The position numbers were made by a program, and so were the translations under genes. Source: an uncultured archaeon (GTDB lineage Archaea; Thermoproteota; Nitrososphaeria; Nitrososphaerales; Gagatemarchaeaceae). From it: a DNA stretch of 64,000 nucleotides. Below, one piece after another: positions 5,277-9,825 of the stretch. Numbering within the stretch: position 1 is the stretch's first letter; the number at the start of each line of letters is the position of its first letter. The stretch spans positions 224,001 to 288,000 of the forward strand of contig CAWCYD010000003.1 in NCBI GenBank assembly GCA_963799775.1. Reading direction: 5' to 3'. The notes below the pieces were generated by a model. The model ran no database searches and was not told where the DNA came from. It worked only from the letters and a program-made list of their open reading frames with translations.

Positions 5277-6014
5277 ATGCGGAAGAATCACTTCAGATGC
5301 AAGACGTGTAGGAAGGCTCGCGACCACGAGTACTACCTGGAAAATCGAGATCACAAAATTGCGATGGTGTCACGATGGCAGGAGCTTAATCCTGAGCTTA
5401 CGGCGGAAATCCAGAGTCGCGCCCAGACAAGGCGACGTCTAGAGTCGTACGGTCTCACTCCCGAGGGTTACCAAAAGAAGATCCTGTCTCAACATGGACT
5501 ATGTCTCCTCTGCAAGTACCCATTATTCCTCGACGACAAGAAATCGTTCATGCGCCCTGTTCTCGACCACGATCACTCATTGAAGGGCGAAAAGAGGGTT
5601 CTTCGGGGCATCCTCCACCATAGTTGCAATCTTCTCCTGACAGAGAAAGTCTGCTCGAGGCCGAGCATCTTGCTGGAAGCGATAGCCTATCTGAAAGGGA
5701 GTACGACCGAGATAGCCTACAAGGCCAATGCTCACGGTGCCAACGCTCGATATTACGCCGACTATCTCCAAGCCATTGAACGGCTCCTCGAAGACCAACG
5801 GCGCTCCTGCAAGATATGCGGGTCTGAGTTCACGGCGGACAAGGTCCGAAACCAGTTCGGCATCTTCGAGAGCCGCTCCTTTGATGTCGACCATGGCGAA
5901 TACACCGGGCTTGTGCGAGGGTTGCTTTGTAGGCCATGCAATCTGCTCCTCGGGAACGCGAGGGAGAATCGCTACATCCTAGCGAGCGCCTACAGCTACC
6001 TGACTCCTTCTTGA
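5277..6014 (+). CDS. protein with two tandem Endonuclease VII-like (His-Me) domains and an N-terminal Zn finger; true start probably upstream
   Basis: Two CxxC...DH...RG[IL]L[HC]xxCNxxL units; frame open back to 5187, adding CIGC...CKTC. Confidence 0.8.
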   Translation: MRKNHFRCKTCRKARDHEYYLENRDHKIAMVSRWQELNPELTAEIQSRAQTRRRLESYGLTPEGYQKKILSQHGLCLLCKYPLFLDDKKSFMRPVLDHDHSLKGEKRVLRGILHHSCNLLLTEKVCSRPSILLEAIAYLKGSTTEIAYKANAHGANARYYADYLQAIERLLEDQRRSCKICGSEFTADKVRNQFGIFESRSFDVDHGEYTGLVRGLLCRPCNLLLGNARENRYILASAYSYLTPS

Positions 6015-6081: not shown

Positions 6082-6624
6082 ATGGGCCGAACCGGGAAGG
6101 TCTATCGCAAGATTCGCGCTCGCTTCACCGACCAGCCTACTTTCTTCACCTGGGTGCGAGAGTCCAAGCTCGCCGCATCCGGGCGGCCGTCGTCGGGCGA
6201 GCAGGTGCGATGGCTGCGGGAGAACGGCGTTACCTCCATCCTCACCCTGACCGAAGACCCGCTCCCATCGCAGTGGACCCGAGGCTTGGAGGCTCACCAC
6301 ATCTCTCTCAAGGACCATGCGCCCCTCACTCCAGAGCAGATGATGAAGGGGGCCGACGTCCTCGCCTCCCAACTCTCAAAGGGGAAGGTCGTCCTCGTCC
6401 ACTGCCTGGCTGGGAAGGGAAGGACAGGCTGCGTGCTGGCTGCCTACATGATAGCATACGAGGGCAAGAGCGCTCGGCAGTCGATCGACGAGCTGCGGTC
6501 GCTCAGGGGTGGCTCGGTCGAGTACGCTCAGGAAAGGAACGTCCTGGAGTTCGAGAAAGAGGCCCTCAAAGGAAGACACCAGAGATCCCCGCAGCAAGGA
6601 ACCACAAACCGAAGCCCGCCATGA
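6082..6624 (+). CDS. dual-specificity protein phosphatase
   Basis: VHCLAGKGRTG P-loop (HCx5R). Confidence 0.9.
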   Translation: MGRTGKVYRKIRARFTDQPTFFTWVRESKLAASGRPSSGEQVRWLRENGVTSILTLTEDPLPSQWTRGLEAHHISLKDHAPLTPEQMMKGADVLASQLSKGKVVLVHCLAGKGRTGCVLAAYMIAYEGKSARQSIDELRSLRGGSVEYAQERNVLEFEKEALKGRHQRSPQQGTTNRSPP

Positions 6625-7178
6625 GGATGGCGGACGCATACGCTATTGGCCTTGCCAACCTCTCGTATCTTGTGACTCCCTTGTAGACGAGCGTCGTGAA
6701 GATGAGCGTCCACCCGACTATCCCGGCGAAGAAGCCGACCGCGATGTCGCCTCCGAACTCAGCCACCATGCCGGCGCCTATGGCGATCCACCATCCCAGC
6801 TGGTAGGGGTTGGTGAGGCCTATGGAGAGGCCCATCAAGAAGGGGGAGCCCCGCGCGCGTGGAGACGCCCGGCTGGACACTATCGGCTCGCGGCGGAATC
6901 TCACGACGGTCGAGAGGGCAAGATAGAGCATGAGCAACCCGCCGAAGACGAAGAGGAGGGTCCCTCTCCTCGACGGTCACGAGCTTCGAGACTCCAAAAT
7001 AGGTCAAGACGAAGAAGACCCCGTCGGCGACCGTCGCCCCGGCGGTCACAAGCCAGCCGGCCAGCCACATGCGTGCGACCACCTCCTGAGCCGCCAAGGC
7101 CATGACAGGCCCCGGGGGCGCCGCTATGGAGAGGCCCAAGGCGACACCGCTCAGAAGCACTTGGAGCCCCGCCAACAA
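6566..7178 (-). CDS. LysE family exporter (one frameshift near 6960)
   Basis: GLSIAAPPGPV N-terminus and LTNPYQLGWW C-terminal half in adjacent frames. Confidence 0.85.
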
Positions 7179-7308
7179 GCAGGCCCGCGGTCACCTCCAC
7201 GTCTAAAAGGACTTGCGAGCGCTCCCATTAGATTTCACACGGAGATGCGACGAGGCGTTCATGGCTATGGTATAGGCTTAAATCGGCGACCGCGCCGGAA
7301 CCGAGGTC

Positions 7309-7431
7309 ATGACTCTAGAAGACAAGGTAAGATACGGAATGCTGGCACTCGGTGGCGCATCAGTCGTCCTGGCGACGCTCGGTGTGCACATCTCCCCTCT
7401 CGACGGCTATCTCGGCGGCTGGGGAAGCTAG
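7309..7431 (+). CDS. 40-aa small peptide MTLEDKVRYGMLALGGASVVLATLGVHISPLDGYLGGWGS (not in the ORF track)
   Basis: TATA-like CTTAAAT ~27 nt upstream of ATG, GAGGT just before ATG; charged N-terminus, hydrophobic helix, Gly-rich tail. Confidence 0.65.
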   Translation: MTLEDKVRYGMLALGGASVVLATLGVHISPLDGYLGGWGS

Positions 7432-7463
7432 GAAATACGGCCCTAGGTCAGATAGACTCTGCC

Positions 7464-8615
7464 CTAGGGCGCTCTCTTAATTTGCAGCAGTAGCTGCTCG
7501 AACTTCCTGAGCGTCTCCTCGGAGTCGAACTTCCAAGTCCTTGACTCGTTGTCATACAGTTTGGGCACGAGCCTGAACGACGCCGAGTGCTTCTGGTCGG
7601 CCATGAACCACCGCGCCTTGTCCTTGACCGGAGTCAGGAGCCGGGAGAGGAACTCCATCGCCTCTGATATCGTCTCCGTCGGGAACGCGAACTGAGCGTA
7701 GTAGCTGTTGCCACCGACCGCCTCCCACCATAGGAAAGGAAGCGTGTTGGTCAGCCCCATCAGAGTGGTCTTCTCGTTCGGGGTAAGGTCCTTGACTATG
7801 ACGTCCACGGGCTGGTATGTGTGCCTCCTGTGCTTGCCCCTGTCGCTTTCGGGGTTGTACGTGGTCCCAATCCAGTTGACCCTGTGCCCCTTCAACATCT
7901 GCCGTCCGAGCACGTGCTTCCGATAATGGAAGCTCAGAGTCTTGTAGTTGATCCCGGTCTCCTTCTGGATCTCTGAGAGAGGCCTGGTCTCATCACGCTG
8001 GAGCCCCTCGATTATCTGGAGGTCGATCCTGTCGAGGTCGCCTCTTGGCGAAGCGCCTTCGATCGGCTCCGGGTAGACCTTCGCCGTCCTGGACCACTCG
8101 AACTCCCAGCGGCCCGCCTCAAAGTCGTATAGCTCCGACTTCATGGGGGCGTTCCTCGCCCAATCGTATCTCGAGAAATCGACGGAGGTGAAGAGCCCGG
8201 CCGACTCGAGCTTGCGCATCATCTCCGTCCAGGCTCCAACCGACTCGGCGGGGACCAGGCCTTGGACGATGTAGTGACCATCAGGGAGGGTTTTGACGAA
8301 GCTCTGGACGTAGCAGATCTGGCTCATCGCCACGAGTATCGACTCGGACTGGGTCTCGAACTCCTTCGCAAAGTCAACGACGGCGACCACCCTCGAGAGC
8401 CCCAGGCCCTCGAAGTTTACCATGGGTTGGAAGGCGATTCCTTGCTTGATCAGCTTCTTGAACCAATAACGCACCGACTCTTTGTGCTCGCCCATCCTCT
8501 TCGCGACCAGCGGGATGTCGGGCCCGACCTCGGTGACTATTCTCACGAACTCTGCGACCTTGGAATTGATGTCCCTAGGTCGTTTCATGTCCTGCATCGC
8601 AGGTTCTGAAACCAT
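7464..8615 (-). CDS. tandem Lrp/AsnC-like transcriptional regulator (two HTH plus ligand-binding units)
   Basis: HTH1 IPLVAKRMGEHKESVRYW...GLGLSRV; HTH2 LDRIDLQIIEGLQRD.TRPLSEI...GINYKTL; TATA ATTAAATA ~27 nt before ATG 8615. Confidence 0.75.
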   Translation of the reverse strand: MVSEPAMQDMKRPRDINSKVAEFVRIVTEVGPDIPLVAKRMGEHKESVRYWFKKLIKQGIAFQPMVNFEGLGLSRVVAVVDFAKEFETQSESILVAMSQICYVQSFVKTLPDGHYIVQGLVPAESVGAWTEMMRKLESAGLFTSVDFSRYDWARNAPMKSELYDFEAGRWEFEWSRTAKVYPEPIEGASPRGDLDRIDLQIIEGLQRDETRPLSEIQKETGINYKTLSFHYRKHVLGRQMLKGHRVNWIGTTYNPESDRGKHRRHTYQPVDVIVKDLTPNEKTTLMGLTNTLPFLWWEAVGGNSYYAQFAFPTETISEAMEFLSRLLTPVKDKARWFMADQKHSASFRLVPKLYDNESRTWKFDSEETLRKFEQLLLQIKRAP

Positions 8616-8756
8616 GGAGGCATTCCATGAGGCGTTGGTATTTAATCTTGTGCGATTTCTCAATAGACCCATAGAGGCACTATACTGTAATTCGGCAAAG
8701 CAGCTTCAGCGACTTCTTCATCTCTATATCGCGGCGCTTGCCCGCTCGCGCGAGAA

Positions 8757-9350
8757 GTGTCTCATGTGAACGTTGGACGGTTCGCGACAGTCAACCTCGT
8801 CTTGGTCTCGCTCTTCGCTGTCGCCCTCCTCTTCGCTCTGGAGACGGCTCCCGAGCCCTATCTCTTCGGCATCGGAGGCCTCGCCGACCTCTCGGGGTTT
8901 CTTGCCCTCGGCTTGATCGCCGCAACGGGCATAATGATGCTATTCAAGGGCAGACTCACCTCACGGGCTGGGAGTCCCGAGCGACTCTGGCGATTGCACA
9001 TCATCATAGCCGGGATCGGAGGGTTCTTCCTAGGGATCCACGTCGTCCTCTTCCTCGCCTTCCCGATCTCGCTCCCTGTCCTGTTGGGCTACGCTGGCAC
9101 CGGGGCCGCCCTCTTCGTCTGGATAACGGGGAGCCTGTATTTCCAGGGCGCGCGCAACTCGATGTTTCTCCACGGGGTGTTCTCTATCGGCGCAGTCTTC
9201 CTCTTTGTCGTCCACACATTTGGGGCGGGCCGGAACATCCCGGTCGTGCTCTCAGGGCTGAGCCTCGCCTTCGCGGCCCTGGCCATGCTCGCCGGTGTCG
9301 CGTGGAAGATAGTCGCTGCTTCTAGGTCAGAGAAAGCTCAGGCCGCCTGA
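8757..9350 (+). CDS. multi-pass membrane protein with intramembrane His residues (cytochrome b/ferric reductase-like TM)
   Basis: About 6 TM segments; WRLHII, IHVV, LHGV, VVHT histidines. Confidence 0.55.
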   Translation: MSHVNVGRFATVNLVLVSLFAVALLFALETAPEPYLFGIGGLADLSGFLALGLIAATGIMMLFKGRLTSRAGSPERLWRLHIIIAGIGGFFLGIHVVLFLAFPISLPVLLGYAGTGAALFVWITGSLYFQGARNSMFLHGVFSIGAVFLFVVHTFGAGRNIPVVLSGLSLAFAALAMLAGVAWKIVAASRSEKAQAA

Positions 9351-9357
9351 GAGGCGG

Positions 9358-9825
9358 TCAGTCGAAGCGGTATTCCATCTCCCAGGTGCGCTTCCATCCC
9401 AGCTTCGTGTAGACCTTCCTTCCCTTGACCGAGGCGTGCAGGAGGATCTTGTAGTATCCCCTCTTCCTCGCCCATTCCATAGCCTCCTTGACGATCATAG
9501 ACGCCAACCCGTTCCTCCTGTATTCGCGAACGGTGTACACCGACATCAAGTATGGTATCAGCCCGGCAGGGCGACCGGGCGAAGGCTGTTGCTCTCGAAG
9601 CCACAAGCAGCCGCTGGCCGCAACCTTCCCTCTGGCTGTCTTCGCTATGTACCCGTGGAAGACCCCTAGTCTCATCATCTCCTTCGCCCACTTCCCATAG
9701 GACTCCTCCAGAGACTGGAGCTCGCCTGTGGTTGAGTCGCTCATCTCCTCGAACATCTTGCTCCTATGCTCGACAAGCACGTCGATGTCTTTCGTGGTGG
9801 CCCTTCGAATCTTGAACGTTGGCAC
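9358..9825 (-). CDS. GNAT N-acetyltransferase
   Basis: VYTVREYRRNGLAS, LHAS..GRKVYTKLGW. Confidence 0.9.
   Translation of the reverse strand: MPTFKIRRATTKDIDVLVEHRSKMFEEMSDSTTGELQSLEESYGKWAKEMMRLGVFHGYIAKTARGKVAASGCLWLREQQPSPGRPAGLIPYLMSVYTVREYRRNGLASMIVKEAMEWARKRGYYKILLHASVKGRKVYTKLGWKRTWEMEYRFD

Follow-up and report, generated by a model that had tools for sequence, protein, structure and literature searches.

A small peptide gene convergent with a tandem Lrp/AsnC-like regulator gene: a candidate peptide-regulator module in uncultured Nitrososphaerales

The RRNPP(A) systems of Bacillota (Rap-Phr, NprR-NprX, PlcR-PapR, Rgg-SHP, ComR-ComS and AimR-AimP) place a small propeptide gene beside the gene of a cytoplasmic receptor or regulator. 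The same arrangement is found in a 64,000-nucleotide (nt) stretch of contig CAWCYD010000003.1 (hereafter the window) from an uncultured archaeon of the Gagatemarchaeaceae, order Nitrososphaerales, where the gene of a 40-amino-acid (aa) peptide converges on that of a 383-aa protein resembling two fused Lrp/AsnC regulators. At the level of titles and abstracts, the literature reports up to 25 RRNPP-type pairs each in Paenibacillus species (PMC7425212), tandem duplications of the pheromone unit in some propeptides of such systems (PMC11343458) and a dedicated export route for the short hydrophobic SHP peptides (PMC7564271); it describes cell-cell signalling mechanisms in Archaea as poorly known (PMC13464002), and our search at that level returned no archaeal peptide-regulator (peptide-receptor) pair and nothing on the family described here. 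The pairing of peptide and regulator genes is conserved in relatives of the window, far beyond chance.

The peptide gene and its paired regulator

A peptide profile built from 16 peptides (a 16-row alignment) gave 73 matches at E ≤ 0.1 in 41 related genomes, and 64 of the 73 lie convergent with a regulator-family match, on the opposite strand and 21-325 nt from its 3′ end. The unpaired nine consist of three weak matches (E > 0.02), two at contig ends and four real orphans. Deeper lineages, including another family of the class, have the convergent pair in seven of seven loci. When metagenome contigs were picked by the regulator alone (the best 80 of 388 regulator hits, a set biased to the peptide-linked clade, 77 of them with enough flank), a peptide gene was found 3-121 nt past the regulator stop in 74 of the 77; one sequence accounts for two of the three misses and still has a recognisable peptide copy, whose stop codon is lost. 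An earlier note on this DNA had proposed the two genes as a peptide-signalling module, and in all three sets the regulator homologues do have similar peptides beside them. Several paralogous pairs occur per genome, and because their other neighbours vary (LysE here, a dCTP-deaminase-like gene elsewhere), regulator and peptide together are what is conserved. The pair has a narrow distribution: besides the window's own family, it was recovered from three more families of the order, in part by weak matches, and from one other family of the class, and searches of 145 and 30 mostly complete genomes from two other families of the order did not recover it.

The two genes and their parts are laid out in the window as follows.

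7309..7431, + strand: small peptide gene, 40 aa plus stop, class A (from the listing of open reading frames and conservation in relatives)
7309..7383, + strand: peptide residues 1-25, signal-peptide-like N-terminus (family statistics; AlphaFold2 helix 3-24)
7384..7428, + strand: peptide residues 26-40, the tail VHISPLDGYLGGWGS, which carries the family motif (tail catalogue; motif alone or in tandem elsewhere)
7464..8615, - strand: 383-aa tandem Lrp/AsnC-like protein, putative DNA-binding regulator (ATG at 8615)
8445..8579, - strand: first helix-turn-helix (HTH), residues 13-57 (recognition helix 45-57; invariant E46, V48, R49, Y50 and K53)
8151..8435, - strand: first RAM-like alpha/beta domain, residues 61-155 (DSSP, profile match and fold alignments)
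7908..8036, - strand: second HTH, AsnC-type, residues 194-236 (invariant Y224, K225, L227, H230 and H234)
7578..7895, - strand: second RAM-like alpha/beta domain, residues 241-346 (DSSP pattern and fold alignments)

The open reading frame (ORF) at 7309..7431 (+) translates to MTLEDKVRYGMLALGGASVVLATLGVHISPLDGYLGGWGS, 40 aa, and stands tail-to-tail with the 383-aa ORF just as the earlier note had it, the stops 32 nt apart (7432-7463). A 40-aa ORF by itself says little in G+C-rich DNA (local G+C ~58%, estimated by eye). This ORF is kept in nine of nine orthologous loci, whose regulators are 71-74% identical, and also in paralogous loci. Across the nine, differences at codon positions 1/2/3 amount to 0.196/0.137/0.451, and the pooled ratio of nonsynonymous to synonymous differences (pN/pS) is 0.34, so that purifying selection was found where the same note had allowed for an ORF without conservation. 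Since it is conserved, in frame and changed mostly at third codon positions, the ORF is more than chance and, judged from these comparisons, a real gene.

Relatives of the peptide are numerous and unnamed. The profile retrieved 567 proteins at E ≤ 0.01 from a collection of 5.8 billion proteins, all of them 'hypothetical' or without a name and none with a Pfam family; once N-terminal over-calls are trimmed, each of the 120 matches listed is 39 or 40 aa long. A library of 1.84 billion representatives yielded 79 clusters at E ≤ 0.001, each ≤98 aa except for one spurious multi-stretch hit. Many homologues had already been predicted by gene callers as 'hypothetical protein', and the window peptide itself gave no match at E ≤ 0.1 in Pfam and NCBIfam. 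An Rfam search over 6500-9500 returned no credible RNA family, its single chance-level match lying elsewhere. Even if the peptide is only a regulated output, there remains an undescribed, widespread small-protein family with its own regulator.

The partner protein has no NCBIfam match; in Pfam, it matches HTH_AsnC-type weakly at residues 194-222 (17.8 bits vs a cut-off of 27) and HTH_36 below threshold at residues 32-60. Among its homologues, 49 of 63 match HTH_AsnC-type at E ≤ 0.01 (best 3.7e-6), and some carry the database name 'DNA-binding Lrp family transcriptional regulator' or 'AsnC family protein'; by the names of its homologues, the protein comes from a member of the Nitrososphaerota (Thaumarchaeota). 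Against PDB sequences, the family profile finds the Sulfolobus Lrp/AsnC protein ST1022 (E 8e-4), and the first RAM-like domain has a profile match to the C-terminal domain of PH0061 (E 0.015). An AlphaFold2 model from the 63-homologue alignment (predicted local distance difference test, pLDDT, 86.9; predicted template modelling score, pTM, 0.84) shows two repeats, each a three-helix HTH and then the beta-alpha-beta-beta-alpha-beta arrangement of the RAM effector domain with an extra hairpin segment. Foldseek ranks the fused Lrp-like siroheme decarboxylase NirDL first (4ch7, E 6e-10) and then many single-unit Lrp/AsnC regulators. In fold alignments, the protein matches Lrp/AsnC-type proteins over its full length, both HTHs included. 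Two HTH plus RAM-like units had been read from the translation, and the model contains both in complete form; the regulator is accordingly predicted to have a double Lrp/AsnC fold in one chain.

Recognition helices are the most conserved segments of the regulator, the first HTH having the lowest column entropy of all (0.59), and the RAM-like parts are more variable. These sequence patterns suggest a DNA-binding protein with a diversifying ligand domain. Regulator-family matches number seven (six loci) in the window's own genome and 1-13 in each related genome with a match. In one peptide-less clade (loci L021 and L034-L037, including C3:1973195 of the window's own genome and relatives), the tandem Lrp-like gene is followed 25-30 nt on, on the same strand, by a ~185-aa ORF that is DJ-1/PfpI-like by reading of its translation. 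Look-alikes in the ESM-Atlas, proteins of ~355-415 aa with AsnC-type HTH matches in several archaeal phyla, possibly have the same tandem build.

Peptide classes, N-termini and promoters

Across the family, the tail has the form [VL]H-x-[SNG]-P-L-[DE]-x-x-G-G-x-G with one to three residues after it, and the x of GGxG is group-specific (W, Y, F, M, A and others). Each paralogue group has its own tails, the N-terminus being generic across groups; this is the leader/mature-peptide pattern of known pheromone families. In a quick regulator tree, supported only by the Shimodaira-Hasegawa-like approximate likelihood-ratio test (SH-aLRT), the clade adjoining a dCTP-deaminase-like gene (SH-aLRT 100) has three class A peptides, six of class B and one locus with no peptide. 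Its class A peptides, from three species, end in ...HPGILDPIGGVGP or ...GPLDPTGPGPLT, the form in this clade being a hydrophobic N-terminus and then ...LDPIGGVGP. Class B peptides, 16-63 aa long, have no hydrophobic part and contain solely (D/E)P(I/M)GG(F/A/V)GPS(Y/N) in 1, 3 or 5 tandem copies. Single-copy forms are M-x5-DPIGGAGPSY or M-x5-DPMGGVGPSN, 16 aa, and multi-copy forms consist of three or five tandem units of (D/E)PIGGFGPS(Y/C/N); the sixth case, at locus L029, is a looser and possibly degenerate match.

Repeat units inside one class B gene differ nearly only at synonymous sites (for example GAC CCA ATC GGA GGC TTC vs GAG CCG ATA GGC GGG TTT), which shows that selection acts on the peptide unit. 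Repetition also occurs behind a hydrophobic N-terminus: a paralogue in the window's own genome has a triplicated tail (3 x NGDPGGNGGPN), its ORF end overlapping the 3′ end of the regulator gene by 4 nt, and a database member has a duplicated one (2 x LEGGGNAD). These duplications arose independently. Together, the motif-only forms, the tandem copies and the near-synonymous differences among copies point to the Gly-rich tail as the functional unit, with a modular motif; as natural variants, the motif-only and tandem forms strongly support the proposal that activity resides in the C-terminal Gly-rich segment.

Two further arrangements of peptide genes were recorded. In the motif-only clade (L013-L015, L027-L029 and L017-L019), the peptide gene directly follows the dCTP-deaminase-like gene on the same strand, and its box and TATA element lie just past the stop of that gene. 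One orphan peptide gene is encoded in the window's own genome, outside the window (G000:C3:1840812-1840928 (-), tail ...HLSPLAEVAGGAGAG); it has no regulator homologue within ~3.3-3.6 kb on either side, is kept in a second genome (L054) and precedes a hydrophobic, membrane-like ORF of 104 aa on the same strand.

The N-terminal part has the strongly conserved consensus MT(L/I)(D/E)(D/E/Q)K(V/I)R(Y/L)G. In the window peptide, K6/R8 belong to the n-region, the hydrophobic span covers 15 residues, and T-L-G occupies -3..-1 of a putative cleavage site. Of 184 family members, 182 have two K/R within the first nine residues; 161 of 178 have a hydrophobic span of 15 residues; aligned on the conserved Gly, 164 of 178 have T/A/S/G two residues ahead of it; and the tail beyond that Gly measures 14-15 residues in 148 of 178. 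The residue itself, G25, is invariant in the 16-row alignment, and AlphaFold2 models the peptide as a single helix (3-24) with a low-confidence tail. By rule of thumb, this tripartite layout suggests a Sec signal peptide with a small-x-small (small-x-Gly) site, probably cleaved after Gly25. The label 'secreted-type' given to the peptide at first reading is consistent with this layout in the family statistics and does not extend to the motif-only relatives, which have no export signal.

Other assignments of the N-terminus were rejected. The FlaFind-type rule for archaeal pilins calls for [KRDE][GA] directly ahead of the hydrophobic stretch; for a type IV pilin-like (class III) signal, the R-Y-G that precedes the stretch here (consensus K-V-R-Y-G) has Y/F/L, uncharged, in the pre-Gly position, and a mature part of only ~30 aa further disfavours it. 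A PGF-CTERM/archaeosortase signal is disfavoured because the hydrophobic part comes before the Gly motif and not after it, and a double-glycine leader because cutting after GG leaves only 2-4 residues. A type I toxin-like hydrophobic peptide does not agree with class B forms that have no hydrophobic part, nor a leader peptide or attenuator with a locus that has no gene downstream on the same strand.

The noncoding elements of the pair are these.

7277..7284, + strand: TATA-like element CTTAAATC of the peptide gene, 24 nt ahead of the ATG
7228..7239, + strand: upstream box TTAGATTTCACA, candidate operator, ~81 nt ahead of the peptide ATG
8640..8663, - strand: regulator promoter, with TATA-like ATTAAAT at 8646..8640 (24 nt before the ATG at 8615) and box TTGAGAAATCGCACAAG at 8663..8647
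7440..7470, no strand assigned: inverted repeat between the convergent stops, 13-nt arms, 92% complementary, overlapping the regulator stop codon

The core of the peptide-gene TATA element, TTAAATC, is invariant in nine of nine orthologous loci, and paralogous loci have a TATA-like A/T stretch at the equivalent place. Its distance of 24 nt from the ATG fits a leaderless transcript, as had been noticed from the window alone. The upstream box has the family form T[GT]AGA[ACT]T[TC]N[GA]CA at -78..-84 in 17 of 23 loci, the same loci from which the pattern was derived. An independent metagenome set, searched with a stricter box pattern, contains it in 22 of 61 distinct upstream regions, where mononucleotide shuffles expect 0.01; every match falls at -83..-77, and the rest of the 130 nt upstream has none. 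Genome-wide, TTAGANTTYNCA has five occurrences, three of which lie upstream of two of the genome's peptide genes.

A box of the same type directly abuts the TATA element of the regulator gene, and the order box, TATA, 24/25 nt and ATG is kept in eight of eight orthologous regulator loci with a complete upstream region; in the peptide gene, the box lies ~50 nt upstream of the TATA element. The two promoters have conserved elements in common. For archaeal Lrp-type regulators, a site upstream of the TATA element fits activation and one at the TATA element fits autorepression. Metagenome orthologues L062, L066, L067, L070 and L080 carry extra box-like repeats, TGATGAGAAT(A/G)TGAT..CATAA(A/G)ATATG, farther upstream of the peptide ATG (~95-125 nt) than the main box; Lrp-type proteins usually have several cooperative sites, and these repeats suggest the same here. 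The inverted repeat between the stops is a possible two-way terminator hairpin, and inverted repeats of different sequence occupy the same spacer in nine of ten other loci, a count made with no shuffle control.

Readings of the pair

We put a probability of about 0.5 on our best reading, in which the adjacent regulator has the tail as its cognate ligand and the two form a feedback loop. The pair would be a cognate two-gene module, consisting of a tandem Lrp/AsnC regulator (a single-chain pseudo-dimer) and a convergent pre-peptide of 39-40 aa, and the RAM-like domains of the regulator would have the 14-15-residue Pro/Gly-rich tail as their ligand. On the DNA, the site bound by the regulator would be the T(G/T)AGAATTCGCA-type box, which lies ~50 nt upstream of the peptide-gene TATA in what would be an archaeal upstream activating position and abuts the regulator's own TATA in what would be a repressing position. 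Both promoters would then be under regulator control, with peptide and regulator closing the loop. Class A peptides would probably be exported and cut after the invariant Gly25, in an extracellular quorum-sensing-like circuit needing re-import, and class B peptides, with the same motif in one to five copies and no export signal, would act inside the cell. Binding of the regulator to the box and to the peptide, export, cleavage and re-import are all steps that we infer. In RRNPP(A) systems the pheromone is secreted, processed outside the cell and taken up by an oligopeptide permease. The window's own genome encodes two SBP_bac_5 (Opp/Dpp-type) binding proteins with scores that exceed the Pfam cut-off; as an import route they are only permissive.

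Several observations weigh against the tail as cognate ligand. Described Lrp/AsnC ligands are amino acids and other small molecules, and the titles of solved complexes agree. Class B peptides have no export signal, so a single extracellular mechanism cannot cover all pairs. In the nine orthologous loci, selection is stricter on the N-terminal part than on the tail (pN/pS 0.225 over the N-terminal 26 columns vs 0.53), which would be unusual if that part were simply an export signal. Paralogues have recognition helices and box in common, implying cross-talk at the DNA level. At least five strong peptide matches stand apart from any regulator (three checked within ±2.5 kb, one within ~3.3-3.6 kb), many regulator paralogues have no peptide, those at 25-35% identity being mostly unpaired, and in the loci read no protease, exporter or importer gene travels with the pair.

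A bolder form of the same idea, which we hold only tentatively and well below even odds, would make this the first ribosomal peptide signalling system of Archaea and the first peptide-reading Lrp/AsnC effector domain. It envisages secreted 14-15-residue Pro/Gly-rich pheromones, each with its own tandem receptor-regulator, in several diversified pairs per genome, and leaderless tandem-repeat variants that would short-circuit the loop inside the cell.

The strongest of the rivals, unlikely in our judgement, makes the peptide a regulated secreted effector (antimicrobial 'archaeocin'-like, surface-active or adhesive) and has the regulator respond to a different cue, an amino acid for example; by the titles of their structures, Lrp/AsnC proteins whose ligands are solved do bind amino acids. 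The conserved box and tight pairing fit a regulator with a single target equally well, a signal-peptide-like N-terminus would serve a secreted effector, and the tails diversify between paralogues as they do in bacteriocin families. Class B peptides are hard to explain in these terms: at 16-63 aa, with a motif under purifying selection and no export signal, they would be extracellular effectors unable to leave the cell. Nor does an immunity, export or processing gene travel with the pair.

We consider it quite improbable that the peptide is an uncleaved membrane microprotein, non-diffusible, whose short tail would recruit the regulator to the membrane or sequester it there, as a tether or anti-regulator, or which would have a membrane partner as its target. 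The hydrophobic N-terminal part is indeed the most conserved (pN/pS 0.225) and is predicted as one long helix (3-24), the length is fixed at 39-40 aa, and multi-repeat tails could bind several sites of an oligomeric Lrp-type assembly. However, the hydrophobic span is only 15 residues in 161 of 178 members and is followed by a small-x-Gly site, and class B pairs do without a hydrophobic part. In addition, with the K/R pair N-terminal and the tail net acidic, the positive-inside rule would put the tail outside, away from the cytoplasmic regulator.

The earlier note had also offered a precursor akin to ribosomally synthesised and post-translationally modified peptides (RiPPs). Such a precursor would have a conserved leader and a variable core, and the winged-helix domains of the neighbour would be its recognition element for a modification pathway. 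The conserved N-terminus and variable tails suit it, as do the multi-core precursors that exist among RiPPs and the winged helix-turn-helix fold shared with RiPP recognition elements. Gene context gives it no support, no modifying enzyme being common to the paralogous pairs (1.2-2.5 kb of flank read per locus); moreover, class B precursors are leaderless, and the neighbour aligns over its full length with Lrp/AsnC-type proteins, its recognition helices best conserved. This makes a RiPP-like precursor very improbable. Lastly, a chance frame in the spacer between the LysE and regulator genes, conceivable because short ORFs are common in G+C-rich DNA, is refuted by purifying selection, hundreds of fixed-length relatives, conserved promoter spacing and retention of the ORF where other neighbours differ.

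Neighbouring genes and comparison with known systems

Divergent from the peptide gene is a LysE-type exporter gene, 6566-7178 (-), split over two frames (6759..7178 and 6566..6937), with the frame change between ~6854 and 6960; orthologues have a single open frame, and the split gene is either a pseudogene or an assembly error. The element TCTAAAAG (CTTTTAGA on the minus strand) at 7202-7209 lies 23 nt ahead of the LysE TTG start at 7178, and the LysE, peptide and regulator genes have a common TATA-to-start spacing, the one that leaderless transcripts should have. Between the LysE and peptide promoters lies the candidate operator box (7228-7239). Beyond LysE, 6082-6624 (+) encodes a dual-specificity/PTP-type phosphatase (PTP-SAK, E 1.2e-22) that is found beside LysE in orthologous loci too, and 5277-6014 (+) a 245-aa protein with two Endonuclease VII-type stretches (Pfam E 3e-23).

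On the other side, divergent from the regulator gene, 8757-9350 (+) encodes a 197-aa polytopic membrane protein with four spaced histidines and no Pfam or NCBIfam match at E ≤ 0.1. It is kept in at least three orthologous loci (L004, L005 and L009), as judged from chance-level tblastn fragments, and, on a reading of its sequence alone, may be dihaem cytochrome-b-like. Further neighbours in the window include acetyltransferase-like and chorismate-binding/anthranilate-synthase-like ORFs, so assigned by reading of their translations and not by Pfam.

Hundreds of natural peptide-regulator pairs with a defined motif and a candidate operator make this a compact, testable candidate, and the motif-only, tandem-repeat and orphan peptide forms are natural 'experiments' on offer. 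If the tail binds the regulator, the ligand range of Lrp/AsnC proteins, a very large family, would widen from metabolites to gene-encoded peptides, and the pairs would provide a first entry point to peptide communication, or peptide-based self-regulation, among the uncultured Nitrososphaerota of soils.

The regulator resembles the siroheme decarboxylases NirDL/AhbAB in its Lrp-like double unit, which is fused or paired in those enzymes, and differs from them in sequence (11% identity), in having no adjoining haem-biosynthesis genes and in belonging to a multi-copy family. The enzymes are expected beside genes of haem d1 or alternative haem biosynthesis, in one or few copies per genome. This context and copy number (1-13), together with the conserved recognition helices and promoter boxes, indicate a putative DNA-binding regulator and not a decarboxylase. 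Compared with Lrp/AsnC (feast/famine) regulators, it has two fused units of ~190 residues each with an extra hairpin after each RAM-like domain, its sequence similarity is below Pfam thresholds, and the ligand proposed for it is a ribosomal peptide in place of an amino acid.

The likeness to RRNPP(A) systems extends beyond gene order, to the several paralogous pairs per genome and to peptides with a conserved N-terminal part and a variable mature C-terminal part; the shp-rgg arrangement is likewise convergent. The differences lie in the receptor, which here has a double Lrp/AsnC fold and not a tetratricopeptide repeat (TPR) fold (no TPR family is among its Pfam matches), in the archaeal host and in peptides that in some pairs have no export signal. 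We know of no counterpart to the leaderless tandem peptide forms. The logic of the module is known from Bacillota, and its components are unrelated to the RRNPP or Rgg/SHP proteins.

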